32,000 bases of DNA from Candidatus Saccharimonadota bacterium (GTDB lineage: Bacteria; Patescibacteriota; Saccharimonadia; Saccharimonadales; UBA4665), in NCBI GenBank assembly GCA_016699955.1, contig CP064993.1:480001-512000 (forward strand), in the 5' to 3' direction. Position 1 is the stretch's first letter; each line of letters opens with the position of its first letter. This document shows, one piece after another, positions 10,176-31,878 of the stretch. The notes below the pieces were generated by a model. It made no database searches and was not told where the DNA came from. It saw only the letters and a list, made by a program, of their open reading frames with translations. The translations under genes and the position numbers were made by a program.

Positions 10176-10877
10176 ATGCTACTGCTGATGCAGGGCGTAT
10201 TACTAATTGATAAGCCGAAAGGCTGGACATCGTTTGACGTTGTCAACTATGTGCGTAAACAAGTAGCAGCGCTGGAAGGAAAAAAACCGAAAAACTGTAA
10301 GGTAGGCCATGCGGGTACGCTCGACCCACTGGCAACAGGTCTACTAGTGCTTATGATTGGCAAAGAATATACACGGCGGTCGGCAGAACTCAGTAAACAT
10401 GACAAAACATATGTTGTTACCATGAAGCTCGGTGAAACGTCAACGACGGGTGACGACGAGGGGGAGAAGAACCCTGTTAGTACCCGCATCCCAAGTAAAA
10501 GTGAGGTGGAAAAAGCTTTGCAATCGTTTGAGGGCGAGAGCATGCAAATACCTCCAGCGTATTCGGCAATAAAGATTCACGGCCAACGAGCCTACAAGCT
10601 CGCTCGTACAGGCAAGCCAGTTGAGTTGGAGCCGAGGCGTGTTACTATTTACAAAACTCAGTTAACAGAATATTCATACCCATTTGTTCACTTTATGTGC
10701 GATGTTAGCAGCGGCACATATGTTCGGTCGCTGGTTGAGGATATTGGCGCTCAGTTAGGAACCGGAGCGTATATGTCTGATCTACAGCGTACCCGTGTCG
10801 GAGAGTATAAACTCGATATGGCGACAGGTGTAGATGATGATAACTTCGTTTCGCATGTGTTTGAAATAGTAACATAA
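10176..10877 (+). CDS. truB: tRNA pseudouridine(55) synthase TruB
   Basis: GVLLIDKPKGWTSFDVV and KVGHAGTLDPLATGLLVLMIG (catalytic Asp motif) are present, together with PPAYSAIKIHGQRAYKLAR. Confidence 0.9.
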   Translation: MLLLMQGVLLIDKPKGWTSFDVVNYVRKQVAALEGKKPKNCKVGHAGTLDPLATGLLVLMIGKEYTRRSAELSKHDKTYVVTMKLGETSTTGDDEGEKNPVSTRIPSKSEVEKALQSFEGESMQIPPAYSAIKIHGQRAYKLARTGKPVELEPRRVTIYKTQLTEYSYPFVHFMCDVSSGTYVRSLVEDIGAQLGTGAYMSDLQRTRVGEYKLDMATGVDDDNFVSHVFEIVT

Positions 10878-10880
10878 GCG

Positions 10881-10910
10881 TTGACATGGAGGGCAGTAGC
10901 GTTTTATGAT
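10881..10910 (+). promoter_or_regulatory. sigma70-like promoter candidate (TTGACA-18 nt-TATGAT) at the start of the accessory cluster
   Basis: TTGACA lies at 10881-10886 and TATGAT at 10905-10910. An AAGGGG Shine-Dalgarno lies about 7 nt before ATG 10974. Confidence 0.4.
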
Positions 10911-10973: not shown

Positions 10974-12497
10974 ATGGCATCACGATTACCAACACCAGGA
11001 GGGGATGACGGTACCTGGGGGGCCATCCTAAACGATTATTTAGCACAGGCACATAAAACCGATGGTTCCCTGAAGGATAACGTCGTCACCGCTGCCGCTT
11101 TGGCTTCAGGTGCAGTAACTGCAGTGGGAATCGCCGATGCGACTATTTCTGAAGCAAAACTTGACTCAGCACTTCAGGTTAAGGTGAACGGTCTTGGCGG
11201 AGGCGGTTCGTTGACGCTTGCCGGTGATGTAACAGGTGCAAGTACAGCAACAGTTGTCGGTAAGGTGAACGGAGTAACTGTCTCGGGTGTACCAACAAAC
11301 GGTCAAGTTCTGACGGCATCTGGTGGTACTGCCGCAAGTTGGCAGACGCCTGCAGCTGGCGGTGGCGTGACTAGTGTAGCTGGTAAGACCGGAGTCGTTA
11401 CGTTGGCTGCTGGTGATGTTGCATCGGGAACCTTTACAGCGGCTCGACTTGGTTCGGGTACAGCAAATAACACGACGTATCTCCGTGGTGATGGCACATG
11501 GGCTGCAGTCTCGGGTGGCGGTGCGGTAACGACTGTTGCCGGACGTACCGGCGATGTTGTTCTCACGAAAACCGATGTTGGCCTTGCAAATGTTGACAAC
11601 ACAAGTGACGCGAGCAAACCTGTTTCAAGTGCAACTCAAACTGCTCTTAATGGCAAATCTGACACAAGCCACACGCACACGCTTGACGCTTTAAGCGACG
11701 TGAGTGCATCTGGAGCTAATGACGGACAGTCGCTCGTCTATAACGGTGGCACTTGGGGTCCCGGCACTGTCGGGACGGGTGGATCTGTCATCGATGCAAC
11801 CACCACTAACAAAGGTGTAGTACAACTCGCCGGAGATCTCGGTGGAACGGCCGCATTGCCAACAGTTCCAGGTCTAGCCGGAAAAGCAGACACGGCTCAT
11901 ACTCACGCTGCAGCTGATATTGCTTCTGGTACAGTAGCGACCGCTAGGCTCGGGTCAGGTACGGCCGATAACACTACTTTCCTACGGGGTGATGGTACAT
12001 GGGTAGCACCAGCGGGCGGCACTGTCGCTGACGCTTCGCCATCGACAAAGGGTATCGTCCAACTTGCCGGAGATTTGGCTGGTTCGGCCACGTCACCTAG
12101 CGTCGCGAAAGTGAATGGTGTAGCAGTGAGTGGAACGCCATCTGCCGGACAAGTCCTGAAAGCCACTAGTGCCTCTGCTGCCTCATGGCAAGCTGACGCT
12201 ACGGGTGGCGGAGGTAGCTCTTGGAATTTTGTATCGGTCAGCGCGAACTCGACCGCCTCAAACGGTGATTATGTACTGGTTGATACCTCGACCGTCGGAG
12301 TGACTATTACCTTGCCTGTCGCTGTAAGCGGTGGAGTTGTGCGGGTAAAACGCATGACAGCCGGTTCTAATAGTGTTCAGATGGTTCCTCAAGCACCAGC
12401 TCTAATTGATGGTTCGGGTGTCGGCTCAGACGTACTGGGTAACCAATGGGATTCAATGGAATATGTCAGTGATGGTACTAACTGGTACAGAGGATAA
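10974..12497 (+). CDS. phage tail-fibre / receptor-binding-protein-like repeat protein (type-1 C-terminal knob)
   Basis: The N-terminus is MASRLPTPGGDDGTWGAILNDYL. Internal motifs are VGLANVDNTSDASKPVSSATQTAL, G(V/I)VQLAGDLGGTA, LRGDGTW (x2), HTH and KVNGV.VSG.P..GQVL (x2). All are typical of actinophage minor-tail/fibre proteins. The Gly/Thr/Ala-rich protein has no signal peptide. Its C-terminus ...VRVKRMTAGSNSVQMV...YVSDGTNWYRG is shared with the 13127-14649 gene. Confidence 0.8.
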   Translation: MASRLPTPGGDDGTWGAILNDYLAQAHKTDGSLKDNVVTAAALASGAVTAVGIADATISEAKLDSALQVKVNGLGGGGSLTLAGDVTGASTATVVGKVNGVTVSGVPTNGQVLTASGGTAASWQTPAAGGGVTSVAGKTGVVTLAAGDVASGTFTAARLGSGTANNTTYLRGDGTWAAVSGGGAVTTVAGRTGDVVLTKTDVGLANVDNTSDASKPVSSATQTALNGKSDTSHTHTLDALSDVSASGANDGQSLVYNGGTWGPGTVGTGGSVIDATTTNKGVVQLAGDLGGTAALPTVPGLAGKADTAHTHAAADIASGTVATARLGSGTADNTTFLRGDGTWVAPAGGTVADASPSTKGIVQLAGDLAGSATSPSVAKVNGVAVSGTPSAGQVLKATSASAASWQADATGGGGSSWNFVSVSANSTASNGDYVLVDTSTVGVTITLPVAVSGGVVRVKRMTAGSNSVQMVPQAPALIDGSGVGSDVLGNQWDSMEYVSDGTNWYRG

Positions 12498-12512
12498 GGG
12501 AAGGATAAAAAT

Positions 12513-12992
12513 ATGCCATTTACAGGAACAGGTACCGGAATACAAAACGCAAATGATGTCTTTTTCAGTGGCGTGGCACAGGATAACGTTTTAAAATTCA
12601 ACAATACAACTGCCAAGTGGAATAACACTCCTGTGGTCGGTTTCTCAGCACTCGCCTATAATGGCGGTCTGGAAACAGTATCTACCCAGACGAGTACTGC
12701 TTCCACGACACTTAACCTTAGTAACGGTAATGTCTTTAATGTCACACTAGCTGTTGCGACGACGACGTTTACATTTAGCGGTGCGACTGCTGGTAGAGCT
12801 TGCTCTTTTGCGGTCTACCTGAAACAGGATGCTAGTGGTAACCGCGCAGTCACATGGCCAGCTTCGGTAAAATGGTCAGGTGGTGCACCGACGTTAACTA
12901 CGAGTGCGAACGCAATCGATATTGTCGTGTTTGAAAGTATCGACGGGGGAACGACGTGGTTCGGCTCTCTTGTAGGTACCAACTTTGCCTAA
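12513..12992 (+). CDS. short fibre-module protein (MPFTGTGTG N-terminal tag + phage-like C-terminal domain)
   Basis: The protein starts MPFTGTGTGIQNANDVFF. The C-terminal part ...FAVYLKQDASGNRAVTWPASVKWSGGAPTLTTSANAIDIVVFESIDGGTTWFG resembles a domain common at the ends of phage tail/fibre proteins. An AAGGGAAGGA Shine-Dalgarno lies upstream. Confidence 0.75.
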   Translation: MPFTGTGTGIQNANDVFFSGVAQDNVLKFNNTTAKWNNTPVVGFSALAYNGGLETVSTQTSTASTTLNLSNGNVFNVTLAVATTTFTFSGATAGRACSFAVYLKQDASGNRAVTWPASVKWSGGAPTLTTSANAIDIVVFESIDGGTTWFGSLVGTNFA

Positions 12993-13023
12993 GAGTAGGG
13001 ATTTGGGATGTTCAAGCTCTATT

Positions 13024-13052
13024 ACTACTACACCATTTGACGGTGTAGTAGT
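13024..13052 (+). terminator. stem-loop (11-bp perfect stem, 7-nt loop) downstream of 12992; no U-tract
   Basis: ACTACTACACC (13024-13034) pairs with GGTGTAGTAGT (13042-13052). No T-run follows, so terminator function is uncertain. Confidence 0.3.
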
Positions 13053-13126
13053 GCGTATACGGGACATATGTTATCCGGGCGATCGTACTTATTCACAATT
13101 AGTAACCTAACAACTGGAGCATATTT

Positions 13127-13679
13127 ATGCCATTCACAGGAACCGGCACCGGCATCCAAAACGCAAACGACGTATTCTTCAGCGTCCTTGCTCAAGACCA
13201 TATCCTTCGTTATGACAACGCTACTGCCAAATGGATTAATATTCCTCTCTCAGTAGCGACAACAGCCCTAACCGATAACTCAGTTACCGAACCAAAGCTA
13301 TCTATTAGCAACGCACCTACTACCAACTACGTCCTTAGCTGGAATGGTTCAGCCATGACCTGTGTTGCTCAAGCCACTGGAGCCGATGCAACCACTACCA
13401 CAAAGGTATTGTCCAACTAGCCGGTGATCTCGCTGGTACTGCTGCTGCACCAACTGTACCAGGACTGGCTGGTAAAGCAGCGACGGTGCATACGCATGCT
13501 CAAGCTGACGTCACAGGACTAGTCGCTTCACTTGCCGCCAAAGAGGCGACAATCACAGCTGGGACTACTTCTCAATATTATCGTGGTGATAAATCATGGC
13601 AAACCCTAGATAAGTCAGCTGTTGGCCTTGCTAACGTCGATAATACTTCAGATGCTAGTAAACCGGTTTCGACTGCGAC
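13127..13679 (+). repeat. copy A of a 553/554-bp near-identical dispersed repeat (5' part of fibre gene)
   Basis: Base-by-base comparison with 21019-21572 shows 2 substitutions (13363 T vs G; 13384 C vs A) and one 1-nt indel (A3 vs A4). Confidence 0.9.
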
Positions 13680-14649
13680 AACTACAGCGCTTTCAGGCAA
13701 GGTGGATAAATCGACAGCGACATCCAAGGGCGACTTGTTGGTGGCAACAGCAGCCTCGACACTTACGCGTCAAGGGGTAGGCCTAAACGGACAGATACTC
13801 ACGGCCGATAGTACCCTCGCTAACGGAATAAAGTGGGCAGATCCAATCGTAAGTTCGGTTGCGGGTAAAACAGGAGTTGTCACGCTCGTCAAAGGCGACG
13901 TCGGCCTTGCAAACGTCGATAACACGTCAGATGCTAGCAAGCCGGTTTCGACCGCCACACAGACTGCTCTTGATTTGAAAGTCGACGAGACCATAAGCGT
14001 GACTGGTGCTACTTCTCTGACCGGTGGCGGCGTCCTTACAGCCAATCGAACTCTTACCCTTGTCAATGACGCGGCCACACCTGGCAACAACAGATACTAC
14101 GGTACGGACGGCACAGGCACAAAAGGGTTTTATACTATTCCGGCAGGTGACCCAAGTATGGGCGGCGACTTAACTGGCACTGCTAGCACTGCGCAGATAG
14201 CTGCCAATGCCGTCACGGCGACAGAAATAGCTAGTAATGCGGTCACGACAATAAAAATTCTTGATAGTAACGTCACTGAACCGAAGTTGGATGTAGCTAA
14301 TAGTCCTTCAACCGGCCAGGTACTGAGCTGGGATGGTACAAACATGGCTTGGGCTGGTGCACTGGCATTTGCATTTACAAAAGTCAGTGTCTCGACGAAC
14401 TATACAGTTACAGCTTCGTTTCAGTATGTGTTAGCAGATGCTACAGCAACTGGGATTACTATTACGCTTCCTGCTCCACAAAATAACGCATATGTACGCG
14501 TGAAACGAATGTCGACTAATGCAAATAGCGTACAGGTTGTGGCTCCGGCTGGTTCTTTTCTTGATGCACCTGCAGTAGGCTCGGACGTACTGAATAACGC
14601 TTATGACAGCGCTGAATACTGGAGCGACGGAACAAACTGGTATAGGTAG
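13127..14649 (+). pseudogene. tail-fibre-like gene split by a 1-nt deletion (ORFs 13127-13420 and 13486-14649)
   Basis: The first 553 nt are near-identical to 21019-21572. The intact paralog has CCACAAAAGG where this copy has CCACAAAGG (A3 at 13402-13404), which shifts the frame. Downstream the second frame continues the same protein (GIVQLAGDLAGTAAAPTVPGLAGKAATVHTHAQADV...). It ends with a type-1 knob (...VRVKRMSTNANSVQVV...YWSDGTNWYR). Confidence 0.8.
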
Positions 14650-14824
14650 AAACTAAGTTATTGTTCGTTGCCGCTGTAGCTGCATGTATGAGTACTGTTT
14701 AGCTGGATGATTTTGTGGATGCAGACTCAACCGGTCGGCTAGTGCCGCAGCTAGTCAGGGAATACCCTCGACTTGTATGGTTGGTAGGTTGGTGGGATGA
14801 ATATGGGTATGTATTATTAATACC

Positions 14825-15654
14825 ATGAGCATAACAACAAGACGGCTACAAAGAACCCAACAGACAACCTCAGCAATCTGGCCAGATGCGACCAATACTG
14901 GTTACAGAGGAACGCTGACAAATTACAGCGGCGGCTCGTCAATTCTCGTTAGCACAACTCTGGTGAATAAGAGGATTTCAACAGCGCTTCAGGTCTTTTC
15001 GGGAGCGACACTCACACTAAACAACTGCTGGGTGGATGGTGGCTTTATTGATGGTGATTATGCCGATCAACCGATCACCCTTACTGACTGCCAGATTGAT
15101 GCTGGAGAGTGGCAGGGGGCGGCGGTGACGGGGTACAACATTCACATTACACGCTGTAACATCACTGGTGCTCAGCATAGCGTTTTGGCCTCAGATAATG
15201 TCACGGTAGAAGACAGTTGGCTACATGATCAGTACGGTGGCCCAGTCGGCAGCTCTTATCACAATAACGCTTTTATTTCGAACGGTGGCAGCAATATCAT
15301 GGTGAGGCATAATCGGTTGGATTGTTCGGTACCGCTGAATGGTTCGGGTGGTGGACCAACCGCCGATGCTTCAATCTTGGTGATTTTGCTACGATGACCG
15401 ATGTCACTTTCGATAACAATCTTTTTATGCCAACAACTGGCGGCTACGGTGGTACATTTGGCTATAATCCGGCTAAGCCATACGGGAGCAACCCGAGCTA
15501 TATTGTAGTTACAAACAATGTCTTCCAGCGCGGCCCGACCGGCATATGTGGTGTCTACGGCACAGTCACGTCTTTTTTGAGTAGTGGAACGGGTAATGTT
15601 TGGTCTAACAATACCTACGAAAACGATGGCACGATCATACCACCTGCCGAGTAA
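14825..15654 (+). pseudogene. right-handed beta-helix (pectate-lyase-fold) protein, frame-disrupted (ORFs 14825-15397 and 15322-15654)
   Basis: It is a paralog of the intact 19010-19921 gene and of 16202-17286 (WPDATNTGY; SWLHDQ...YHNN; NNLFMPTTGGYGG; NNVFQRG). The two ORFs overlap at 15322-15397 and the downstream frame is offset by -1. The junction is likely near CTTGGTGAT (about 15377-15385). Confidence 0.7.
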
Positions 15655-15750
15655 ATTTTCTCTGACTACCTCCTCAAATAGCAATATTCTTTTGCCGCTG
15701 AATATATTCACCACATTTACCGCTGGTAGGATTATGCTAAACTGGAAACC

Positions 15751-16191
15751 ATGAGCAGGTTTGCACAGAGGCTTAGGAGTGCAGTTGGAAAAGGCGGTGT
15801 GCTATATTTATCGCCTATGTCCGGCAGTTATAGCGGCGGTTCGACGGTAAACGTGGCTATCCGTATGACAAGTGGCAGCACGCTTGTTAATACTGTACAG
15901 GCAAATCTTACTTACCCTACCGCTCAGCTGCAATTTGGCAGTATCAGTACTGTCGGTAGTCCGTTTACGACCACAATTCAGAGCAACGGCGGAAGTGGTT
16001 CTGTCCAGCTTGGCGTCGGCATATTGGCTGGTTCGACTTTTGGTGATCAGCTCGTAGGGGTTATTACGTTTACTGCGACTGCTGCTGGTGCTGCGACAGT
16101 GACTTTTAACGCTGGTTCTGGTATTGCCAGAACTGCCGATGCAGTCGATATCTGTACTCAAAAGCGCGGAGCAGCGTATACAATAACCTAA
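15751..16191 (+). CDS. cohesin-like domain protein (MS-R-F-x-Q-R-L N-terminal tag, no signal peptide)
   Basis: LSPMSGSYSGGSTVNVAIRMTSGSTLVNTVQANLTYPTAQLQFGSISTVGSPFTT...VGVITFTATAAGAATVTFNAGS follows the cohesin layout: a first strand with a selected set, then 'Y(D/P)...L.F' and 'i.F.a...G.a.l.f'. Confidence 0.55.
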   Translation: MSRFAQRLRSAVGKGGVLYLSPMSGSYSGGSTVNVAIRMTSGSTLVNTVQANLTYPTAQLQFGSISTVGSPFTTTIQSNGGSGSVQLGVGILAGSTFGDQLVGVITFTATAAGAATVTFNAGSGIARTADAVDICTQKRGAAYTIT

Positions 16192-16201
16192 GGACTAGAT
16201 C

Positions 16202-17286
16202 ATGCTCTATCATAAAATCCAAAAAGCCATCCGTATTCACAGCCTTAGCCCCGTTCTAGTAGTGGCTGGTTGCCTAGCCTTAACAGTTAGCGTGGTTGTC
16301 TGGGCGGCCAATGTCTATACCAGTCTAGAGACAGAAAGTGGTACTGTTGCAACCGCCATAGTTGTCGGTGATGCGTCGGCTTCAGGTGGTCAGGCGGTTA
16401 AGTTCGGGGCGGCTGGTAGCTGTACCTATGCTGGTCATGTACCCGATGGAACTGATGGCTTTGGCGGTTGTTGGCCGGGGCCGAACAATACGGGCGTACC
16501 GGATGGTACTACGCTAACCAACTATACCGGCCCCTGCACAATCACCACCAATAACACTGTAATTGACGCTAAAACGGTTAACTGCGATCTGCATGTTAGG
16601 GCACAAAATGTTACTATCACGAGATCTATGATCAATGGCTATATTGAAACCTCTAATGATAGTGGCACTTCTTATAATTACGCAGTGACAGATAGCACAA
16701 TTCACGTTGCTGATATTAATTATCGCGGTTTATTGTACTCAGACTACATTGCCACTAGAGTGGATGTTTCTGGCGGGCAAAGTATGGCTTGGTGTGACAC
16801 TTGTACAATTCAAGACTCATATCTCCATAACCCACTTGAGGATCCCGAGGAGCAGCTGCCAATCACGCCGCTCATAATTCTACAGTTCGTGTTTCAAAAT
16901 ATGCAAATCTCATACACAATACTTTGTGGTGTAATGTAGTTGAGTACCCTCAACCAGATGGGTTGGATGCCTCGGGATGTTCGGCAAATCAAACTGCCTA
17001 TAGTCATGACGGCGCACCTCCCTACAACAGCACCATAGAGAAGAACCTTTATATGCCGACGACAGGCGGGTACTGCGCTTATGGTGGTTCTACATCTGGA
17101 GACCTAGCTGCGGTACACGATATTGTCTTTAAGGATAATGTATTTAAACGGGGTACAGTGCAAGGCGAAAACAACCGTGGCTTTGTCTGTGGGTATTGGG
17201 GACCGATAACGAGTTTTGATAGTAACCGGCCAGGCAATCAATGGATTAATAATAGATGGGATGACGGCACTATCTTGCTGCCGTAG
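16202..17286 (+). pseudogene. membrane-anchored/secreted right-handed beta-helix protein, frame-disrupted (ORFs 16202-16939 and 16924-17286)
   Basis: An N-terminal hydrophobic anchor (LSPVLVVAGCLALTVSVVVWA) is present. CWPGPNNTGVPDGTTLTNYTG and SYLHNP match the paralogs. After DP (about 16841-16850) homology continues in the -1-offset frame (GAAANHAAHNSTVRVSKYANLIHNTLWCNVV...KNLYMPTTGGYCAYGG). A C-run at 16844-16846 is a plausible site of a 1-nt loss. Confidence 0.7.
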
Positions 17287-17306
17287 AATTGAAGAAAGAA
17301 GATCGT

Positions 17307-18155
17307 ATGAGATTACCAGCTGTTGATTACTTAAAAACAAAATGGAAAGCAAAAATATCGCGAAAAGTGATGGTTGTTATGGCTTTCCTAACAATTCTAG
17401 TCATGCCATCGTTGGTAGTATATATGACAACATCTGAGTCACAACAAGTCCTACCGGCAACGTCGATGGGCAATATGTATCTAGCACCGGAGGCGCCGCA
17501 AGCCAAGCAAGGTGATCCTTTGGCTGTCAACGTGCGGATTGAACCTGGTACGCCGATAGATACAGTGGTCGCAAGGCTACAATTTAACCCCGACCAGTTG
17601 ACCTATACATCGGTTTCGTATCAAAATTCACCATTTGCTACCCAAATACCGATAGTCGTCACCAGCAACCGCGTCACGGTAGAGAGTGCAAAATTTGGTA
17701 ACGGCCCCGTGACGGCTGATTCGTTGATTGCGCAGGTCACATTTACTGCCAAACAAACTGGAGTAGCGGAACTGACGCTAAGTGGTGACGCTGCCTATGC
17801 TGGTGTGGCCACTCACCCGACAATTATGGGCGAGGTAGTACCCATAACTACAAGTAACTCCACGCCAGCTTCGGCTGGGCAACCAGTTACAGGTGTAGCT
17901 AGGCAAACTGAAACGGCATCCAGGACTACTGCTAGCGCACCAGTACAATTAACCAAGTCTCTTCTAACTTCGATAGGTCTTTCCGAATACAAAGCCGCAG
18001 CAGTCGCGCCTGTGTTAGCAATTTGTCTCGGTGTTTGTGTGGCTAGTGGCTTCGGCTATGCGCTTTACCGCTTTCTTGCTAGGCGTCGACGTGTACTGGG
18101 CTTAGATAAAAATAAACCCATTATTCACAAACAGGGAGACAATCATGTCGAATAA
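17307..18155 (+). CDS. cohesin-like domain protein with N-terminal signal/anchor and C-terminal transmembrane anchor
   Basis: The N-terminal hydrophobic segment is VMVVMAFLTILVMPSLVVYM. The cohesin-like core reads MYLAPEAPQAKQGDPLAVNVRIEPGTPIDTVVARLQFNPDQLTYTSVSYQNSPFAT...AQVTFTAKQTGVAELTLSGDA. An S/T/P linker is followed by the C-terminal TM segment VAPVLAICLGVCVASGFGYALY and then RFLARRRR. ATG 17307 is preferred over TTG 17289 because of the GAAGAAAGAAG upstream. Confidence 0.6.
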   Translation: MRLPAVDYLKTKWKAKISRKVMVVMAFLTILVMPSLVVYMTTSESQQVLPATSMGNMYLAPEAPQAKQGDPLAVNVRIEPGTPIDTVVARLQFNPDQLTYTSVSYQNSPFATQIPIVVTSNRVTVESAKFGNGPVTADSLIAQVTFTAKQTGVAELTLSGDAAYAGVATHPTIMGEVVPITTSNSTPASAGQPVTGVARQTETASRTTASAPVQLTKSLLTSIGLSEYKAAAVAPVLAICLGVCVASGFGYALYRFLARRRRVLGLDKNKPIIHKQGDNHVE

Positions 18156-18807
18156 ACTACAGCTGTACTGGAGTAAATTTGCTCTGGCACTCGTTAGCGT
18201 GGTTATGGTGGTTGCAGCCGTACCAACGCCATCGGTGTACGCCGCTGCTTGTACGCCGCCAGGAACCAATTACGGTACGGTAACTCAAACATCCAACATC
18301 AGCTCGGCCGGCACCTACCGCATCTGGACGCGAATGGCGGCAGCTAATAGCACGGACAATACTGTTCTGCTCGAAATCGATGGCAACACTTGCTATGTCG
18401 TAGGTGGTAGCAGCGTCCCGACCTATGCCAGTGGCGCTACAAATTACTTCGTTAACAACAAGACAAACTGGATCAGTAAGACTACTGGCGGGACAAATAT
18501 AGACGTATCTTTTACTACGGGCAATCACACAGTAAAGCTAATCGGCAATGGTCCGGGTGTTGTAATTGACCGAGTGCTGCTTACCAAAGACACTACATGT
18601 ACCCCGACAGGTACTGGCAGTAACTGCGCCAGCATCTACTTTGCGGCTGATATCGATCAAAACGGTAGCGTCAACTTCCTAGACTTTAGCCGTCTCGCGA
18701 GCAAATACAACCAAAGTGGGGGTGGCTTGGGGCGGACCGATATTAACCTCGATGGCACGGTTAGCTTTTTAGACCTTAGTCTGATGGCCAACACCTATGG
18801 CCAGTAA
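18145..18807 (+). CDS. secreted CBM-like domain protein with C-terminal dockerin (two EF-hand-like repeats)
   Basis: The signal peptide is ...LALVSVVMVVAAVPTPSVYAAA. The CBM-like pattern is AGTYRIWTRMAAANSTDNTVLLEIDG...FTTGNHTVKLIGNGPGVVIDRVLL. The dockerin duplicates are DIDQNGSVNFLDFSRLASKY and DINLDGTVSFLDLSLMANTY (about 18645-18804). Its start overlaps the stop of the preceding cohesin gene. Confidence 0.7.
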   Translation: MSNKLQLYWSKFALALVSVVMVVAAVPTPSVYAAACTPPGTNYGTVTQTSNISSAGTYRIWTRMAAANSTDNTVLLEIDGNTCYVVGGSSVPTYASGATNYFVNNKTNWISKTTGGTNIDVSFTTGNHTVKLIGNGPGVVIDRVLLTKDTTCTPTGTGSNCASIYFAADIDQNGSVNFLDFSRLASKYNQSGGGLGRTDINLDGTVSFLDLSLMANTYGQ

Positions 18808-19009
18808 ATATATACTTGCAAAAAACTCCCCCTCAGACTTATGTAGGAGCATACATATGCCGCTTTTTTCGGTTTGGGGTTTACGGGCTCTACCTTCCCC
18901 AGACAAACCGCTTTCTGGTTTACTCTTGGCCGACCCCGAAGACGTTGGGGTTTTCGTAAGTCGAGTCAAGGCGATTGGTCATCTGAGGTGAATTTAATAC
19001 ACTAGGATT

Positions 19010-19921
19010 ATGAGTAGTTTTACCAGACGAATACAACGAGTTCCTGCGGTTTCTCCGCCGGCACTGGGTGGCTGGCCAGATGCGACGAACACTGGACCGG
19101 AAGCTGCTGGCTACACCAACTTAACCGCCTGGACAGACGGCTACCTGATCGGACCGACCTATTCAAACACGGTGATCAGTGGCAAGATTTTCGACGGCAT
19201 TGGGCCTCAGGTGACCGGAAACAACGTAACATTTCGTGGTTGTATCATTCGAGAAACGTATCCCAATGGTTTTTTGTTGCGACTGGACGGCACGAACACG
19301 ACATTCGAAGATTGCCGGTTTACGCCCGCAGTTGGTGTGATGCCCCCGGTGAGTTTGGCGGCCTCATATCAGCAGGGAATCAAAATGATCAATGGTGTCG
19401 GCCTTACGGTCCGGCGATGTGAGTTTTGGGGCTTTGGAAATGCTATCGAATTTGAACCATCGAGCGCAACCCAGGCTAACCCGATTCTTGTAGAGGACTG
19501 TTGGATGCACGACGCGGCCGACCAGAGTGGTGATACTTATCATCACGACGGTATATTGTCGTCTTATGCATCGTCATGGGTGAGTGTTGATCACTGTCGG
19601 ATAGTCTCCGGCGGCAACACTAACGCCATCGCTTTCCAGTCAACTGGAGGCCAATGGTCGAAAATTGTAGTGAACAACTGTTTGCTCGGCGGGTTTGGAT
19701 ATACAGTCAATATTGGCGATAGTTTTGGTGGTAATAACATTACCCTTACGAACAATGTGTTTGACACATCTATAGTATGTGACTGGGGTCCATTTAAAAA
19801 TGATTGGTCAGGGTTTACTGGCACAAATGTATGGCAGGGGAACACTTGGGACACGGGGGGTTACTGGTGGCCAACAGATGGCGCTTCGACTGGCGGGCAT
19901 GGTTCTGACTGGGCAGGATAA
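19010..19921 (+). CDS. right-handed beta-helix (pectate-lyase-fold) protein, intact paralog
   Basis: The N-terminus is MSSFTRRIQRVP...GGWPDATNTGP. Repeating N-x-T-F/V-x-x-C turns are present, with CWMHDAADQSGDTYHHDG and NNCLLGG / LTNNVFD. It has no signal peptide. Confidence 0.75.
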   Translation: MSSFTRRIQRVPAVSPPALGGWPDATNTGPEAAGYTNLTAWTDGYLIGPTYSNTVISGKIFDGIGPQVTGNNVTFRGCIIRETYPNGFLLRLDGTNTTFEDCRFTPAVGVMPPVSLAASYQQGIKMINGVGLTVRRCEFWGFGNAIEFEPSSATQANPILVEDCWMHDAADQSGDTYHHDGILSSYASSWVSVDHCRIVSGGNTNAIAFQSTGGQWSKIVVNNCLLGGFGYTVNIGDSFGGNNITLTNNVFDTSIVCDWGPFKNDWSGFTGTNVWQGNTWDTGGYWWPTDGASTGGHGSDWAG

Positions 19922-19959
19922 GCTAGATTACCGCTAATCTGAGCTATATAATAGTTACC

Positions 19960-20856
19960 ATGAGCAGGTTTACGAGACGGCTTCAACAGGGAGTGAGTGG
20001 CTTTAGCGACAGTTTGCGACCAGCTGCGCCGATAATTACCAGCAGCGCTACTGCAACAACTACTACACCGACCATCAATGGGACGGCTGAGCTTGGGACA
20101 ACTGTAGAGATCAGCATAAATAACCATGTATATTCTAGTTCGACCAACGGTAGTGGAGTATGGTCAATCGTAGTCGTAGATACGCTGACACAAGGCAATG
20201 CCTATACGTTGACAGCTTCAGCTCGCAATGCAGCTGGATATGTTTCTAAAGTTGCAGCAACTCAAAACCTGACAGTCAGCGGCTCCGCTGGCACGTTTGC
20301 TGGTACAAAGGTCGCGATCATCGGTGACTCTTTGACCTATCAGGCAGATAATGGTCAATATGATATACCGGCGGCCTTTACCTCGGCTGGCTGGCCAACT
20401 GATGCTACCTGGTTTTACTCTTGGGACGGCAAGAAAATAGCCGAGTCAGATTGGGGCAATCTTACTACCATGCAAAATATTGCGCAATGTCGTTTGGATA
20501 TTGGCGAGCCAGATGTTTGGGTTATTGCGCTTTGTACAAATAATGGTAGTGACTCGGTGCAAAAAATAACTAGCGATATGCAACTGGTATTTAATGCACT
20601 TGGCTCGTCGGCACGCCTACTCTGGGTCAATAAAGGTGATTGGTGGGTTCCACCCGATTCAGACATTAACAATACTATCGCCTCGATGATATCGTCACGA
20701 CCATATTCAATGTTAGCTGACTGGTACAGTGTTGTCGAAAATACTGCCGATCAAACCAACTGGTGGACAGACGGAACTCACATGACAAGATACGGCTACT
20801 CAATACGCAATAATTTCATCGCTGCTAAATCGGTAGAACTTTTTAACCAGGGATAA
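19960..20856 (+). CDS. bacterial Ig-like domain + SGNH/GDSL hydrolase (esterase/deacetylase-type)
   Basis: The N-terminal tag is MSRFTRRLQQ. The Ig-like segment is PTINGTAELGTTVEISINNHVYSSSTNGSGVWSIVVVDTLTQGNAYTLTASARNAAGYVS. SGNH block I is VAIIGDSLTYQ and block V is WWTDGTHMTRYGY. A TATAAT box at 19947-19952 lies 7 nt upstream of the ATG and there is no Shine-Dalgarno. Confidence 0.75.
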   Translation: MSRFTRRLQQGVSGFSDSLRPAAPIITSSATATTTTPTINGTAELGTTVEISINNHVYSSSTNGSGVWSIVVVDTLTQGNAYTLTASARNAAGYVSKVAATQNLTVSGSAGTFAGTKVAIIGDSLTYQADNGQYDIPAAFTSAGWPTDATWFYSWDGKKIAESDWGNLTTMQNIAQCRLDIGEPDVWVIALCTNNGSDSVQKITSDMQLVFNALGSSARLLWVNKGDWWVPPDSDINNTIASMISSRPYSMLADWYSVVENTADQTNWWTDGTHMTRYGYSIRNNFIAAKSVELFNQG

Positions 20857-20959
20857 TATAACCGAGCTTGGCCTACTTAAAGAGCTGAAATAATCCATTG
20901 ATTAATCTTGGTAGCCCTGAAGACGCTAATGTTGATGGTGTTTTGGTCTGTGCGCTTCC

Positions 20960-21073
20960 AATATCTCTGTTATAATCATAACCAGTTAAACTATTATCTA
21001 AAGGGAAGTGAGACAACTATGCCATTCACAGGAACCGGCACCGGCATCCAAAACGCAAACGACGTATTCTTCA
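20960..21073 (+). repeat. copy 1 of a perfect 114-bp repeat (promoter + 5'UTR + first 18 codons)
   Basis: By direct comparison it is identical to 22981-23094. Confidence 0.9.
20968..20976 (+). promoter_or_regulatory. extended -10 promoter element TGTTATAAT
   Basis: It matches the TGnTATAAT consensus exactly, 42 nt upstream of ATG 21019. It lies inside the ORF-track N-terminal extension (TTG 20908), which is therefore rejected. Confidence 0.5.
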
Positions 21074-21572
21074 GCGTCCTTGCTCAAGACCATATCCTTC
21101 GTTATGACAACGCTACTGCCAAATGGATTAATATTCCTCTCTCAGTAGCGACAACAGCCCTAACCGATAACTCAGTTACCGAACCAAAGCTATCTATTAG
21201 CAACGCACCTACTACCAACTACGTCCTTAGCTGGAATGGTTCAGCCATGACCTGGGTTGCTCAAGCCACTGGAGCAGATGCAACCACTACCACAAAAGGT
21301 ATTGTCCAACTAGCCGGTGATCTCGCTGGTACTGCTGCTGCACCAACTGTACCAGGACTGGCTGGTAAAGCAGCGACGGTGCATACGCATGCTCAAGCTG
21401 ACGTCACAGGACTAGTCGCTTCACTTGCCGCCAAAGAGGCGACAATCACAGCTGGGACTACTTCTCAATATTATCGTGGTGATAAATCATGGCAAACCCT
21501 AGATAAGTCAGCTGTTGGCCTTGCTAACGTCGATAATACTTCAGATGCTAGTAAACCGGTTTCGACTGCGAC
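21019..21572 (+). repeat. copy B of the 553/554-bp near-identical dispersed repeat
   Basis: See 13127-13679. This copy carries A4 and keeps the reading frame. Confidence 0.9.
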
Positions 21573-22887
21573 GCAGACTGCCTTAAACGCCAAGGCTAGC
21601 ACAACAACAACCATAACTGGGACTACTTCACTAACAGGAGGCGGCGACTTATCTGCTAACCGAACACTAACGCTTGTCAATGACAACGCAAGTCCAGGTG
21701 CTGATAGGTACTATGGTACAAATGTTGGCGGTACGAAGGGTTGGTATGCACTTGCAGGTGGTGGCTCATCAGGGCAGTTTGGCTACATCTTCCTTGACGA
21801 TCAAGCCGGTGCTACTGACGATGATAAACTGACCGCTGCCATTGCCGCACAGCAATCTACCAACGGTATGCCACCTATTGTACTAGGTGCCAGGAGTCAT
21901 TCCTTTAACCAGACTCGTACTCTATACTCTGGGCTTAAGCTTATAGGCCAATCTACTGGTCCAAAAAACCTTGAACAAAACCCTAACTTTGTAACCTCTC
22001 GTATTGTACTAGGTGCGGCAGTCTCATCAGGCGCAAGCAGTTGGTGGGTGACCCCAGGAGGAAACTTATTTGACATATACATGGCAGATTTTGCTGTAAA
22101 CGGTAACGAAGGCGCCTCTGTCCACCAGTTCATGGATGTAAACAGTGGAACACTATACGCGTGTGAGTTCCATAGCTTGGCATTTGACTTCATGCGATCA
22201 GTATTGGGACGCAAAGATCGCACCTTCTTAATGACACAAGTTGTACTTTCTGGCCACTGGACAGCAAATAATCTGTGGGATACGCAGTTTCACCTCGGTG
22301 GGTCAGATAACTCACTGTGGATGGGTGGCATGATTAACATGGGACCATCAGCATCCCCAGCACAGACAGGAACCTATGCCGATAATGATTACGAATTTAT
22401 GTTTAACAATATGTCAAAGACAAATGTAGGGTACATATACATGACTGCACTTAACGGATGGCGAGGTATTCGTGTTCAAGGAACTTCTTCTTTCCTGACG
22501 TTCTATGGTGGTGTATATGAGGGTTACAACGCGGGGACACCTGCACCGGGTACAGTTATACGTCTTGAAGGTGGAGTTGGTTCATTCTATGGTCCTAACA
22601 TCGGTCAGGGAATGGGCAGCCCGGATGCGGCTGAAGGTGGTCTTGTTCACATCACCGGTGGTGAATGGAACTTCTACGGACCGATATTTTACCGAGGTAA
22701 CATGACAGACACAACCCCTTGTATCTACCAATCTGGGGGCCGTGTTCACGTCACAGGGGCAACACGCCGCCAGAGTGAGACTTGGACTGCACGCCCTGTA
22801 CTAGATACTGGAGCTGCAGGTGGAAATACAGCTGGTACAGGAACCTACACGACATACGTTCCCGATCTTTCTATGAACGTCACCTAA
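21019..22887 (+). CDS. tail-fibre-like protein with tailspike/depolymerase-like beta-helix C-terminal domain (mosaic gene)
   Basis: The protein starts MPFTGTGTGIQNANDVFF and carries the fibre motifs GIVQLAGDLAGTAAAPTV, HTHAQADV, YYRGDKSW and VGLANVDNTSDASKPVSTATQTAL. The C-terminal 365 aa or so (AGATDDDKLTAAIAAQQ...) are homologous to the C-terminus of 23040-24491. An AAGGGAAGTGAG Shine-Dalgarno is present. Confidence 0.8.
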   Translation: MPFTGTGTGIQNANDVFFSVLAQDHILRYDNATAKWINIPLSVATTALTDNSVTEPKLSISNAPTTNYVLSWNGSAMTWVAQATGADATTTTKGIVQLAGDLAGTAAAPTVPGLAGKAATVHTHAQADVTGLVASLAAKEATITAGTTSQYYRGDKSWQTLDKSAVGLANVDNTSDASKPVSTATQTALNAKASTTTTITGTTSLTGGGDLSANRTLTLVNDNASPGADRYYGTNVGGTKGWYALAGGGSSGQFGYIFLDDQAGATDDDKLTAAIAAQQSTNGMPPIVLGARSHSFNQTRTLYSGLKLIGQSTGPKNLEQNPNFVTSRIVLGAAVSSGASSWWVTPGGNLFDIYMADFAVNGNEGASVHQFMDVNSGTLYACEFHSLAFDFMRSVLGRKDRTFLMTQVVLSGHWTANNLWDTQFHLGGSDNSLWMGGMINMGPSASPAQTGTYADNDYEFMFNNMSKTNVGYIYMTALNGWRGIRVQGTSSFLTFYGGVYEGYNAGTPAPGTVIRLEGGVGSFYGPNIGQGMGSPDAAEGGLVHITGGEWNFYGPIFYRGNMTDTTPCIYQSGGRVHVTGATRRQSETWTARPVLDTGAAGGNTAGTGTYTTYVPDLSMNVT

Positions 22888-22922
22888 ACATTTCCTAGCA
22901 ATCTAGTAAATTTAAATGATAA

Positions 22923-22960
22923 TTAACCCCAGCTCGGCGCTTACAGCTAGCTGGGGTTAA
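22923..22960 (+). terminator. stem-loop terminator candidate (12-bp perfect stem)
   Basis: TTAACCCCAGCT (22923-22934) pairs with AGCTGGGGTTAA (22949-22960) around a 14-nt loop. TCCATAATCTTTTC follows. It lies between the stop at 22887 and the next promoter. Confidence 0.5.
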
Positions 22961-22980
22961 TCCATAATCTTTTCACTTCT

Positions 22981-23094
22981 AATATCTCTGTTATAATCAT
23001 AACCAGTTAAACTATTATCTAAAGGGAAGTGAGACAACTATGCCATTCACAGGAACCGGCACCGGCATCCAAAACGCAAACGACGTATTCTTCA
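22981..23094 (+). repeat. copy 2 of the perfect 114-bp repeat (promoter + 5'UTR + first 18 codons)
   Basis: It is identical to 20960-21073. Confidence 0.9.
22989..22997 (+). promoter_or_regulatory. extended -10 promoter element TGTTATAAT
   Basis: This is the same element as 20968-20976, 42 nt upstream of ATG 23040. Confidence 0.5.
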
Positions 23095-24491
23095 ATGTCC
23101 TTGCTGATGGCCAGATCCTTGAGTACAACAGTACGACTGCGAAATGGGTTAATGCCGCAAATACCAGCGACCCAGTACTTGGTGGTGATCTGACTGGCAC
23201 TGCCAGCAATGCTCAGATAGCTGCCAATGCCGTCGGCACTACTCAAATCGCTGACGGAGCAGTAACCGAACCAAAACTAGGCGCCAGCAACGCGCCGAGT
23301 ACCAACCAAGTACTGAGCTGGGATGGCTCTAATATTACCTGGGTGACACAAAGCACGGGGGTAGATGACGGAACAAGGTTGCTTGATTCATTTGCTGGTG
23401 CGACCGACGACGACAAACTGACTGCTGCTATTGCCTGGCAGCAGGGACATTCTCGCATGCCTGCGATTCGCTTAGGTTCGCGTATTCATACGTTTAACCA
23501 AACGAGGCAGCTGTATAGTGGCCTCAAGATTATTGGTACACCGGCAGGTCCTCGCAACCTCGAGCAAAGTGGCGGTGTGTTTGTACCGACCAGGATCAAC
23601 CTCGGAGCAGCCATATCGTCTGGTGCGAGTTCATGGTGGGTCACACCTGGAGGAAACTTGTTCGATATATATATGGCTGATTTTGCGGTTTCCGGTAATG
23701 CGGGATCATCCGTACACCAATTTATCGATGTCACTACGGGTTCCCTATATGCCTGCCAGTTCCATGCACTGAGTTTCAACTTTATGCGGAGCGTTTTTGG
23801 ACGCAAGGATCGCAAATGCTTGGTGACGCAAGTTATATTTTCTGGCCACTGGACGGCAAATAACCTGTGGGACACACAGTTCATGCTCGGTGGTGCTGAC
23901 TGTAATCTCTGGATGGATGGTTTCTTAAACATTGGCCCGAGTTCGAGCCCTGCACAAACCGGTACCTATGCAGACAATGACTACGAACTCATTTTTGACA
24001 GCCTGAGCAAGACCAACGTAGGTTATATCTTTATGTCAGCTCTCAACGGCTGGCGTGGCCTCAAGGTTTCCGGCAGTGCCGGTCACGGACTTCGTTTTTT
24101 CGGCGGAACCTACGAAGGCTATAAAAGTAGCAACGACAACCTCGCCGCACCAGGTACGGTTATTCGACTAGAGGGAGGCAAAGGAGCATTCTTCAGCCCA
24201 AGCCTCGGCCAGGGCATGCAAAGTCCAGATGCTGCCGAGCTAGGCCTCGTACACATAACTGGTGGGGAGTGGGCGTTTTACTCACCGACTTTTTATCGCA
24301 CACCAGCTGCCGATACTGTGCCGATGATCTATGTTTCTGGAGGCCGTGTATTGGTAGAAGGTGCTACACGCAACGACGACCAAGAAGCTTGGACAACACG
24401 TCCGAAGTATCTTCTCGGAGGGGGAGTGGCGACTGGTCCGAACAGTGGTGAAAATGTTTTCTACTGCCCAGATATGTCGATGGTTCCATAA
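23040..24491 (+). CDS. short fibre-module protein with tailspike/depolymerase-like beta-helix C-terminal domain
   Basis: The N-terminus is MPFTGTGTGIQNANDVFF, followed by GGDLTGTASNAQIAANAV and VTEPKLGASNAPSTNQVLSWDGSNITW. The C-terminal domain begins AGATDDDKLTAAIAWQQ and includes SSWWVTPGGNLFDIYMADFAV, SGHWTANNLWDTQF and APGTVIRLEGG. It is paralogous to 21790-22884. Confidence 0.8.
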   Translation: MPFTGTGTGIQNANDVFFNVLADGQILEYNSTTAKWVNAANTSDPVLGGDLTGTASNAQIAANAVGTTQIADGAVTEPKLGASNAPSTNQVLSWDGSNITWVTQSTGVDDGTRLLDSFAGATDDDKLTAAIAWQQGHSRMPAIRLGSRIHTFNQTRQLYSGLKIIGTPAGPRNLEQSGGVFVPTRINLGAAISSGASSWWVTPGGNLFDIYMADFAVSGNAGSSVHQFIDVTTGSLYACQFHALSFNFMRSVFGRKDRKCLVTQVIFSGHWTANNLWDTQFMLGGADCNLWMDGFLNIGPSSSPAQTGTYADNDYELIFDSLSKTNVGYIFMSALNGWRGLKVSGSAGHGLRFFGGTYEGYKSSNDNLAAPGTVIRLEGGKGAFFSPSLGQGMQSPDAAELGLVHITGGEWAFYSPTFYRTPAADTVPMIYVSGGRVLVEGATRNDDQEAWTTRPKYLLGGGVATGPNSGENVFYCPDMSMVP

Positions 24492-25943: not shown

Positions 25944-27017
25944 CGTATAGAACTCAAGACCTTTGCAACATTGCAGCAGGCACCTGCATCTGTATGCCTA
26001 AGTGTACTCGCTTCGTGTTGTAGTAGTCGAGATACGCAGTAAGCTTATCTCGCTGGCTTTGGAGCGGTACGCTCCTGCGCCAGTAGTATCCAATACATTC
26101 TGTCTGGATAGTTCGGTTGTATCGCTCTATGTGAGCATTGTCATTGGGTCGGTGCAATCGGGAGTGTCTAGTGGTAATACCTCGTGAGCGAAGCACTTGC
26201 TCAAAGTAGCGTCCGTACTCTGGACCATTGTCTGCCTGCACCATGGAAATAGTAAAGCCCCATTGGTCTTGTGCTTCCAGGACCGCCCGTGCAGCAAGCC
26301 CTGGGCTGAGCCGGGTTGCTAGAATGACGTACGTCATTCTAGTGAATAGGTCAATGACCGTGTAGTAATACAGACGCTTACCGCTGTGTGGATCGACATG
26401 GTGGATAGTATCTGTCTGTACGAGCTCACCAGGCCCTGTGGCTTGTGGACGTCTCGGGTTATCTGGTCGTACTCGCTTCTTCCTGGCTCCATCAAAGCAG
26501 TAGTGTCGCCGTAATATACGGCGCACACTGCTAAGGCTAACAATGGCTGTGCCGTAGGCATCGCCAACTCGTGTCAGGTGGTACCACACCACCTCAGCAC
26601 AACGTTTGAGTCTATGTCGTAATTCAAGTATCCGAGTCATGAGTTGCTCGCCTATTGCCTGAGGGCTTGTATGGGGCCGAGATGTGTACGTAGGGATGAG
26701 CCATGTACATCGCAGTAGGTGGTTTGCTTTGCTGTACACACGGGCTGGGCGGTTGGGATTGTCGAACTGAACATGCTCATTGAGCTTGTCCCACTTCTGC
26801 TTCCATCTCCAGATGGTGGTACGGTGTACACCGCAACGGTTGGCAACAATCTGCAAGGGTATTCCCTCACACACAAGCAACCGCATTGCCAAAGCTCTCG
26901 CTTTAGGTAGGTTAGGGTTGATAGAATAGGCCATGGTAGGCTCCTTCCTGTTAGATGTAATGCTCTTACAGTTTAGGATGCCTACCTTTTAGGTTGCAAA
27001 GGTGGTGAGTTAGTACG
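25944..27017 (-). mobile_element. IS481-like (IS3/IS481 superfamily) insertion sequence, about 1074 bp, with imperfect terminal inverted repeats and candidate 6-bp target-site duplication
   Basis: The left end CGTATAGAACTCAAGACCTTTGCAAC (25944-25969) matches the reverse complement of the right end (26993-27017), CGTACTAACTCACCACCTTTGCAAC. The inner 11 nt are perfect, and 19 nt match with 2 mismatches. GCAACA directly flanks both ends (25938-25943 and 27018-27023). Confidence 0.65.
25954..26934 (-). CDS. DDE (rve/integrase-core) transposase, single-ORF IS481-like
   Basis: The N-terminal HTH is IVANRCGVHRTTIWRWKQKW. The DDE core reads VQTDTIHHV ... VQADNGPEY ... NDNAHIERYNRTIQTE. The stop codon lies within the left IR, as is common in IS481-type elements. 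Confidence 0.85.
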   Translation of the reverse strand: MAYSINPNLPKARALAMRLLVCEGIPLQIVANRCGVHRTTIWRWKQKWDKLNEHVQFDNPNRPARVYSKANHLLRCTWLIPTYTSRPHTSPQAIGEQLMTRILELRHRLKRCAEVVWYHLTRVGDAYGTAIVSLSSVRRILRRHYCFDGARKKRVRPDNPRRPQATGPGELVQTDTIHHVDPHSGKRLYYYTVIDLFTRMTYVILATRLSPGLAARAVLEAQDQWGFTISMVQADNGPEYGRYFEQVLRSRGITTRHSRLHRPNDNAHIERYNRTIQTECIGYYWRRSVPLQSQRDKLTAYLDYYNTKRVHLGIQMQVPAAMLQRS

Positions 27018-31828: not shown

Positions 31829-31878
31829 AATTTTATTATACAGCACACCAAGTGCGTGCTAATCCAACAAGACGGTCT

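Follow-up and report, generated by a model that had tools for sequence, protein, structure and literature searches.

A recent gene conversion probably placed a fibre-gene N-terminal module before a tailspike-like head in a Saccharibacteria chromosome

The tail-fibre and tailspike genes of phages are mosaic, with modules exchanged at conserved linkers, as in T-even, lambdoid and P2-like phages, and the multi-tailspike phages of the CBA120 type combine a conserved N-terminal anchor with swappable heads. Ectopic gene conversion and concerted evolution are known for the duplicated tuf genes of enterobacteria and for paralogous surface-protein families, and conversion serves antigenic variation in Neisseria pilE/pilS, Borrelia vlsE and the MgPa repeats of Mycoplasma genitalium. 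Diversity-generating retroelements (DGRs) and invertible fibre segments (Gin/Cin, shufflons) target the receptor-binding ends of fibre genes. The present analysis concerns a stretch of 32,000 nucleotides from Candidatus Saccharimonadota bacterium (assembly GCA_016699955.1, contig CP064993.1, positions 480,001–512,000 of the forward strand), hereafter the window, in which two fibre-type genes on the same strand share a near-identical 5′ tract of about 553 bp. This tract probably results from a recent, non-reciprocal ectopic gene conversion at two conserved motif junctions, directed from the gene that begins at position 13127 to the gene that begins at 21019. Genes are referred to below by their first position in the window, and the features on which the comparison is based are as follows.

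13126–13679, + strand: first copy of the tract, comprising the 5′ 553 nt of the type-A fibre gene; presumed donor, with orthologs collinear through and beyond 13679.
21018–21572, + strand: second copy of the tract, comprising the 5′ 554 nt of the mosaic tailspike-like gene; presumed recipient, with orthologs of its head carried behind other N-termini.
13363–13405, + strand: the three differences within the tract, namely T at 13363 (Trp to Cys), C at 13384 (synonymous) and AAAA reduced to AAA at 13405 (frameshift).
13620–13679, + strand (21513–21572 in the other copy): stretch encoding the VGLANVDNTSDASKPVS motif and containing the 3′ end point, with diverged copies at 11576–11667 and 13899–13990.
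13127–14649, + strand: type-A fibre gene with an MPFTG N-terminus, a shaft of DUF5907 and phage-tail repeats (PTR) and a small beta-sandwich head, interrupted at 13405; its syntenic ortholog (P0097) follows truB in the related locus L067.
21019–22887, + strand: mosaic gene, intact, 622 amino acids; residues 1–184 of the 13127 lineage, then its own shaft remainder and a B1-type, predicted right-handed beta-helix head (residues ~255–622).
23040–24491, + strand: B2-type tailspike-like gene with an MPFTG N-terminus, a short DUF5907 shaft and a beta-helix head, an architecture kept in the relatives P0019, P0022 and P0038.
20960–21073, + strand: first copy of a 114-nt block, identical to 22981–23094.
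22981–23094, + strand: second copy of the 114-nt block, before and at the start of the 23040 gene.

A base-by-base comparison of 13126–13679 with 21018–21572, performed from the two ATGs, identified exactly three differences: T at 13363 against G at 21255, C at 13384 against A at 21276, and one A fewer at 13405, where the 13127 copy reads CCACAAAGG and the 21019 copy CCACAAAAGG. Identity begins 1 nt 5′ of both ATGs (13126/21018) and ends at 13679/21572; from 13680/21573 onward, 9 of the next 14 positions are mismatched, and the peptides at this 3′ junction read ...TTTALSGKVDK in the 13127 gene and ...TQTALNAKAST in the 21019 gene. The two substitutions and single 1-nt indel counted by the initial annotation for 13127–13679 and 21019–21572 were thereby confirmed, as was its statement that the genes diverge completely right after the tract. 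Self-blastn (99.46% identity over 555 columns), MAFFT alignment and a repeat search all support the same tract. The starts of the two copies are 7892 nt apart, and the pair is the sole long near-identical pair in the window, which excludes chance; besides it, only the 114-nt leader block is near-identical to another part of the window.

The three differences (13363, 13384 and 13405) are spaced by exactly 21 nt and all fall inside 43 nt of the 553-nt tract, a pattern for which a local consensus problem, a clustered mutational event and coincidence are all possibilities. A short patch from a third local paralog was rejected as their source, because the other copies of the motif have G, not T, at the position of 13363.

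For codon alignments, the frameshift of the 13127 gene was repaired in silico, and synonymous divergence was calculated by the Nei–Gojobori method (NG86). Inside the tract, 184 codons contain one synonymous and one non-synonymous change, corresponding to a synonymous divergence (dS) of ~0.007. Just past the tract, the same two genes show a proportion of synonymous differences (pS) of 0.55–0.80 and a non-synonymous divergence (dN) of 0.16–0.20; the beta-helix heads of 21019 and 23040 show a pS of 0.64–0.97 and a dN of 0.14–0.6, and the 13127 and 10974 genes a pS of 0.65–0.85. Synonymous sites are saturated in every other homologous segment of the cluster, and the four VGLANVDNTSDASKPVS copies (11576, 13620, 13899 and 21513) have 65–71% nucleotide identity over 92 nt. 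The tract is therefore a patch of near-identity inside homologous sequence that is strongly diverged, including at synonymous sites. It had been proposed that the other homologous motifs of the cluster are heavily diverged at synonymous sites and that the identity is both local and recent; the pS range of 0.55–0.97 elsewhere, set against a single synonymous change in 184 codons, bears out both points.

The 5′ flank of the mosaic gene has a different affinity. Positions 20960–21021 equal 22981–23042 exactly, and the two coding sequences remain identical to nt 55, so that the 114-nt block 20960–21073 (= 22981–23094) consists of 59 nt of leader and 55 nt of coding sequence. This block contains an extended −10-like element (TGTTATAAT), the leader, a sequence resembling a ribosome-binding site (AAGGGAAGTGAG) and the first 55 coding nt, and the promoter-like site of its 22981–23094 copy has the form TTTTCA-16-TATAAT with TG (10/12). 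Over 72 nt of upstream region, 21019 matches 23040 at 68 positions and 13127, to which it is unrelated here, at only 20. The description of the 21019 gene as a three-way mosaic, in which the leader and first 55 nt agree with 23040, the first 553 nt agree with 13127 and the head is a diverged paralog of the 23040 head, is thus upheld.

The identity of the first 55 coding nt was also compared with that of other paralogs. The 12513 gene, which serves as an internal control in the form of an unconverted paralog, encodes the same first 18 residues, yet only 47 of its first 57 nt are common to the others, and the same figure of 47/57 nt holds between the two MPFTG paralogs of the related locus L067. 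Since paralogs with the same N-terminal peptide normally reach only 47/57, the 55/55 identity of 13127, 21019 and 23040 represents derived homogenisation and not codon constraint. Constraint at the RNA level was rejected as well, because no RNA-structure signal was detected in the shared leader (z = −0.24) and Rfam and tRNA scans of the window were empty.

In the proposed mechanism, the first 553 nt of the type-A gene 13127 would have been copied onto the start of the tailspike-like gene 21019, 7.9 kb downstream. The 5′ end point would lie within the first 55 coding nt, in the conserved MPFTGTGTGIQNANDVFF start, and the 3′ end point where the conserved VGLANVDNTSDASKPVS motif, a repeated element of all these fibres, ends. 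Replacement would have been confined to the segment between the two islands of homology, and the recipient would have kept its own leader and its own beta-helix head; the 114-nt block that it has in common with 23040 calls for either another conversion or a template switch inside the identical 55 nt. The product would be an intact gene in which a B1 beta-helix head, of tailspike or depolymerase type, is carried on a type-A N-terminal adaptor and shaft. If the frameshift and the Trp-to-Cys change in the donor are real, the chimera may have functionally replaced the donor.

The end points coincide with the only two pre-existing stretches of homology between the genes, namely the N-terminal coding stretch and the VGLANVDNTSDASKPVS motif, and the remainder of the motif just past the 3′ end point (T-x-TAL-x-x-K) is still alignable at ~50% identity. 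Lineage-specific sequence is retained on both sides of both copies, which indicates two end points and a patch rather than a single crossover; the 21019 flanks are its own, the 13127 gene is collinear with its orthologs on both sides, and the patch is non-reciprocal, with no deletion or duplication product. The same flanks bear on another origin for two direct 553-bp repeats that bracket a 7.3-kb block of accessory surface-protein genes, an arrangement that Campbell-type integration of a circular element, unequal crossing-over or segmental duplication might also produce. A single crossover would have joined the sequence upstream of 13127 to that downstream of 21019, or the reverse, but syntenic orthologs remain collinear with the left copy to either side, and the right copy is still framed by a 23040-like leader and a B1 head. 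With lineage-specific flanks on both sides of both copies, such origins were rejected and are considered extremely improbable.

The present state of the presumed donor is unusual. The 1-nt indel is a frameshift, a point that the initial annotation had missed, and it splits the 13127 gene into the open reading frames (ORFs) 13127–13420 (97 amino acids) and 13486–14649 (387 amino acids), the latter 100% identical to NCBI QQS20456.1, hypothetical protein IPL85_02550 [Candidatus Saccharibacteria bacterium]; the addition of one A at 13405 restores a protein of 507 amino acids. The T at 13363 replaces a Trp that is conserved in orthologs and in paralogous DUF5907 repeats by Cys, so that both polarisable differences in the tract, the Trp-to-Cys change and the frameshift, are derived and damaging in the 13127 copy. 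Programmed −1 frameshifting and slipped-strand phase variation at 13405 were rejected, because CACAAAGG does not form a slippery heptamer and an A3/A4 run lacks the necessary length. The spacer in front of the gene (12993–13126) comprises 134 nt, whereas that of the syntenic locus L067 has only 23 nt; the 134-nt sequence matched none of the fetched loci, and no promoter-like site was seen in it. Two further genes near the donor are interrupted in a similar way.

14825–15654 and 16202–17286, + strand: a pair of beta-helix genes located between the repeats; in each, an apparent 1-nt deletion in a short homopolymer divides the gene between two frames.

The corresponding ORF pairs are 14825/15322 and 16202/16924, and, judged by the intact paralog 19010–19921, the apparent deletions lie near 15370 (TT(T)) and near 16835 (CCC(C), beside GGATCC). 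Three broken genes are thus present within 4.2 kb, and none among the remaining 28 kb of the window. Homopolymer deletions of 1 nt are a classic residual error of Nanopore consensus sequences, especially where short reads map to multiple positions. The three interruptions may represent either real decay of the segment or unpolished long-read errors, and for the 13127 donor in particular, a fresh pseudogene and a long-read consensus error are almost equally probable.

These interruptions raise the question of whether the tract itself could be an artefact of assembly or polishing, its identity created or exaggerated when sequences were mis-joined or when short reads were used to polish across paralogs. 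The source is apparently a metagenome-assembled genome, the homopolymer deletions in three genes within 4.2 kb are typical of uncorrected Nanopore consensus, and repeats are poorly polished by multi-mapping short reads. Both copies, however, lie on a single contig, where their flanks are unique and consistently ordered, the three differences between them show that they have not been collapsed, and polishing cannot raise an identity of ~70% to 99.5% over 553 nt with sharp edges at motif boundaries. Judged by its locus-tag series, which matches that of the closed genome CP064992 (IPL68_...), the genome appears to be one of the closed long-read genomes of a Danish activated-sludge study, in which Nanopore assemblies were polished with Racon, Medaka and Illumina reads (PMC8012365); if so, single reads would span the 7.9 kb, and mis-assembly of the 553-bp repeat is unlikely, with the exact count of differences then being less certain. 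An artefactual origin of the tract as a whole is accordingly regarded as highly improbable.

The direction of transfer was examined by comparison with relatives, of which those at hand have only 60–80% amino-acid identity. Searches recovered thousands of relatives of the family; no sequence from the same species was obtained by exact-protein look-ups (products of 23040, 21019 and 13486) or by an exact 50-nt search of Joint Genome Institute (JGI) metagenomes, and one scan of genome contigs revealed no relative closer than 65%. The order truB, DUF5907 gene, 158-amino-acid gene and type-A gene is syntenic in the loci L067–L069 at ~70% nucleotide identity, and all type-A orthologs begin with MPFTG and have their adaptor and shaft elements in common. 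P0081 and P0066 possess the long form of the shaft seen in the tract, P0081 remains collinear past the 3′ junction (KPVSTAxxTALxGKxDKSTATxKGD), and the closest homologs of the tract all terminate in the type-A head (...SDGxNWYR). In relatives, on the other side, B1 heads follow at least five other N-termini (MLGDD.., MSFGGGGG.., MPFNGAGS.., MARLPQPGGDDG.. and MAYSPP..), and in the nearest B1 orthologs (521–523 amino acids) the head follows a short ...SVAGKTGxVTLxKxDVGLGNVDNTSD... linker; no B1-headed protein with the N-terminal module of the tract was found among the best 120 hits. Since type-A orthologs carry the module and B1 orthologs never do, a single event would have run from 13127 to 21019, and by this parsimony argument the 13127 gene is most likely the donor.

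A different history would make 21019 an already old chimera with a diverged module, in which a recent conversion re-homogenised the two copies, perhaps from 21019 to 13127. Such a history accounts for the clustered changes of the 13127 copy better than a single event does, as these derived and damaging changes fall within 43 nt and errors of repair synthesis are expected in the recipient. It needs two events instead of one, however, and the identity reaches the very edge of homology on both sides with no older, diverged remnant in either copy. The nearest syntenic ortholog of 13127, P0097, is a short-shaft form that lacks residues ~77–137, and 13127 could thus have received the long form by import, but the long-form type-A proteins P0081 and P0066 are collinear with 13127, and the N-terminal module is missing from the B1-headed proteins mentioned above. 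On balance, this older chimera is unlikely.

Several points weigh against a simple conversion from 13127 to 21019. Three differences clustered within 43 nt in the presumed donor are not what simple drift after conversion predicts, and the frameshift and the exact level of identity are known from the assembled sequence alone. No genome of the same species, in which the state of 21019 before conversion might be seen, was found, and the direction is argued from parsimony, as an older chimera re-homogenised either way would look similar. In addition, no signal peptide was recognisable by eye in the encoded proteins. A recent conversion in the direction 13127 to 21019 nevertheless remains the probable explanation.

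The initial annotation had left the choice between gene conversion and cassette exchange. The first of these is favoured by the patch with its own flanks; the second, if understood as a programmed process, is not, given a single full-length, syntenic donor and the lack of comparable tracts in relatives. Under programmed variation, 13127 would act as a donor cassette, silent or defective, whose sequence is transferred again and again to the expressed 21019 gene and so varies the displayed fibre, as in pilE/pilS or vlsE. The donor is indeed frameshifted and its 134-nt spacer lacks a promoter-like site, 21019 and 23040 possess a leader with an extended −10-like element, and islands of conserved sequence bracket the exchanged segment. 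The frameshift may nonetheless be an assembly error, and only one donor is present, which is full-length and conserved elsewhere in both synteny and architecture; several silent, promoterless partial cassettes, as known from antigenic variation, were not found, nor did self-blast of 69 loci from relatives reveal any comparable near-identical tract. No associated recombinase, inverted repeats or reverse transcriptase accompany the genes either, and a programmed system of this kind is very unlikely.

More specialised devices were likewise considered. No reverse transcriptase was detected by Pfam scans of the listed window ORFs of at least 110 amino acids, the window contains no inverted repeats of at least 30 nt, and its only recombinase-like gene is an rve-type insertion-sequence (IS) transposase (25954–26934). 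A DGR was rejected because there is no reverse transcriptase and the differences (G/T, A/C and an indel) do not form an adenine-specific repeat pair; an invertase or shufflon was rejected because such inverted repeats are lacking and the transposase is the only recombinase-like gene; and an IS-mediated origin was rejected because the IS lies 4.4 kb away and is unrelated to the tract.

The proteins encoded by the cluster resemble phage receptor-binding proteins in both their fibre repeats and the folds of their heads. Their shafts match DUF5907 and the PTR family (Pfam) and PHROG families annotated as minor tail or tail-fibre proteins, and tblastn searches with the shafts retrieved minor tail proteins of Mycobacterium, Arthrobacter and Gordonia phages. 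Two further fibre genes precede the type-A gene.

10974–12497, + strand: opening gene of the cluster, encoding a DUF5907/PTR fibre whose type-A head has diverged, preceded by a strong promoter-like site at 10881–10910.
12513–12992, + strand: fibre protein of 159 amino acids whose C-terminus matches phage tail-fibre C-terminal families (phrog_9017, 1e-22); an ortholog carries PF26209.

An AlphaFold2 model of the 21019 protein, built with 68 homologs, has a predicted local distance difference test score (pLDDT) above 90 at residues ~255–622 and low confidence in the shaft, as expected for a monomer model of a fibre. The head is predicted to form a right-handed beta-helix, and its best fold matches in the PDB are phage tailspike depolymerases (Belisarius gp86, CBA120 TSP3, HK620 and Sf6) and polysaccharide-active enzymes. 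The type-A head is modelled with confidence as a beta-sandwich of ~90 residues, weakly similar to domains of tailspikes and baseplates; outside these last ~90 residues the model is poor, and the fold matches are only suggestive. One N-terminal peptide is combined with four different heads in the 12513, 13127, 21019 and 23040 proteins. By analogy with phage receptor-binding proteins, the shared N-terminus would be a docking or adaptor module, and the exchange would then change the head that is displayed at that position. A role in the recognition of a host surface is plausible. Saccharibacteria depend on several adhesins and grow while attached to Actinobacteria (PMC10633639); in the papers searched, nothing was found on this family in Saccharibacteria or Patescibacteria, and likewise nothing on DUF5907.

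A second N-terminal peptide family (MSxFTRRLQR / MSRFAQRLR) is found on four otherwise different genes (14825, 15751, 19010 and 19960) located between the repeats, of which three encode beta-helix or immunoglobulin-like proteins and one a small cohesin-like protein. The recurrence of this peptide hints at a second shared adaptor or an export signal. Proteins with cohesin-like (PF00963) and dockerin type I (PF00404) domains are encoded at 15751–16191, 17289–18155 and 18145–18807, among the fibre and beta-helix genes, which suggests that some of the surface proteins assemble by cohesin–dockerin pairing.

The content of the window fits a Saccharibacteria chromosome: it includes fpg, a fused otsAB, holA and truB, its GC content is 45–54%, and its best relatives are Saccharimonadales. 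Upstream of the cluster are fpg, otsAB, holA and truB, and the window otherwise holds surface-protein genes and one IS. Scans for protein families detected no capsid, terminase, tape-measure or baseplate genes in the 32-kb window, so that the fibre genes are not located beside other virion genes as they would be in a phage or prophage. The cluster consists of chromosomal genes of phage type and is not a prophage. In the related locus L061 (19725–21118), truB is followed by rpsO, whereas in the window (10176–10877 to 10974) and in L067 it is followed by the fibre operon, and rpsO is absent from the 32-kb window; the cluster thus occupies a variable insertion point beside housekeeping genes. At its other side, an IS-type transposase gene (rve integrase core and helix-turn-helix) is located at 25954–26934 on the − strand, 1.5 kb downstream of the fibre cluster, and beyond it lie large surface-protein genes at 27100–29694 (beta-propeller) and 29909–31846 (beta-helix), whose homologs adjoin fibre genes in locus L063.

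The B-type head (21780–22887 and 23400–24491 in the window) also occurs, at 42–56% identity, in IMG/VR contigs with 54–70% GC. Two prophage-like contigs were inspected, and in both the head is encoded inside a tail module.

L070, 7873–9108: head in a tail module with a tape measure, virion proteins and an integrase.
L074, 8511–9743: head in a tail module with a minor tail protein, an endolysin, a fibre with the same repeat and an integrase.

The head is further present at 61% identity in the locus L005 of an Actinomycetota metagenome-assembled genome; with no PHROG hits around the head, this locus cannot be counted as a prophage. These occurrences suggest gene flow between phages of high-GC hosts and Saccharibacteria.

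Taken together, the region 10974–24491 may be viewed as a chromosomal host-recognition toolkit of phage origin, whose fibres and tailspikes dock by a common adaptor and whose heads and shafts are re-sorted through recombination in the conserved adaptor and motif sequences; the tract would then record a fresh head swap, with the type-A gene decaying and the 7.9-kb block deletable. This wider picture is tentative and, as a whole, rather doubtful. In this picture, Saccharibacteria display fibres and tailspikes that share repeats and a beta-helix head with tail proteins of temperate phages of high-GC, probably actinobacterial, hosts. Apart from this picture, RecA could act on the 553-bp direct repeats and remove the beta-helix, cohesin and dockerin genes between them, which would permit loss of the 7.9-kb block in part of the population.

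Conversion among paralogous genes for surface or fibre proteins is a familiar process, and the event as such is ordinary; the interest of the locus lies in the phage-like receptor-binding modules of an epibiont. It is valuable as a clean case that can be dated and whose two end points are both resolved, and it illustrates how an abundant and unstudied protein family of Saccharibacteria acquires new domain combinations. If these fibres and tailspikes serve to attach to the host cell envelope or to digest it, module exchange at conserved motifs would offer epibionts a route of host-range change parallel to that of phages, and a head domain common to prophage tail modules would point to gene flow between phages and epibionts with the same hosts. 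For users of the public closed genome, the three probable homopolymer frameshifts bear on whether the genes concerned should be counted as pseudogenes.

Compared with the mosaic fibres of phages, the cluster has the same conserved N-terminal adaptor, repeat shaft and variable head, break points in conserved motifs and homologous or structurally similar repeats and heads, and its B-type head also sits in the tail modules of prophage-like contigs. It differs in that the genes are located in a Saccharibacteria chromosome between housekeeping genes, and that the exchange took place between resident paralogs and not between co-infecting phages. With the conversion of tuf-type duplicates it shares a non-reciprocal patch of near-identity between diverged, directly oriented paralogs a few kb apart, end points in homology and retained flanks; the outcome is different, however, as a new domain combination (type-A shaft and B1 head) was formed instead of homogenised equivalents, because the end points fall in short motifs common to otherwise non-collinear genes. 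Like pilE/pilS, vlsE and MgPa, the locus exhibits segmental, non-reciprocal copying, possibly from a non-expressed or defective copy, into a gene with its own promoter, and its products are probably located at the cell surface; unlike them, it has no array of silent partial cassettes, its donor is conserved at full length, and there is no sign of repeated switching. DGRs, Gin/Cin and shufflons are set apart by a reverse transcriptase, a template/variable repeat pair, inverted repeats or an invertase, none of which is present in the window, and whereas those systems alter the receptor-binding tip, the part exchanged here is the N-terminal half.

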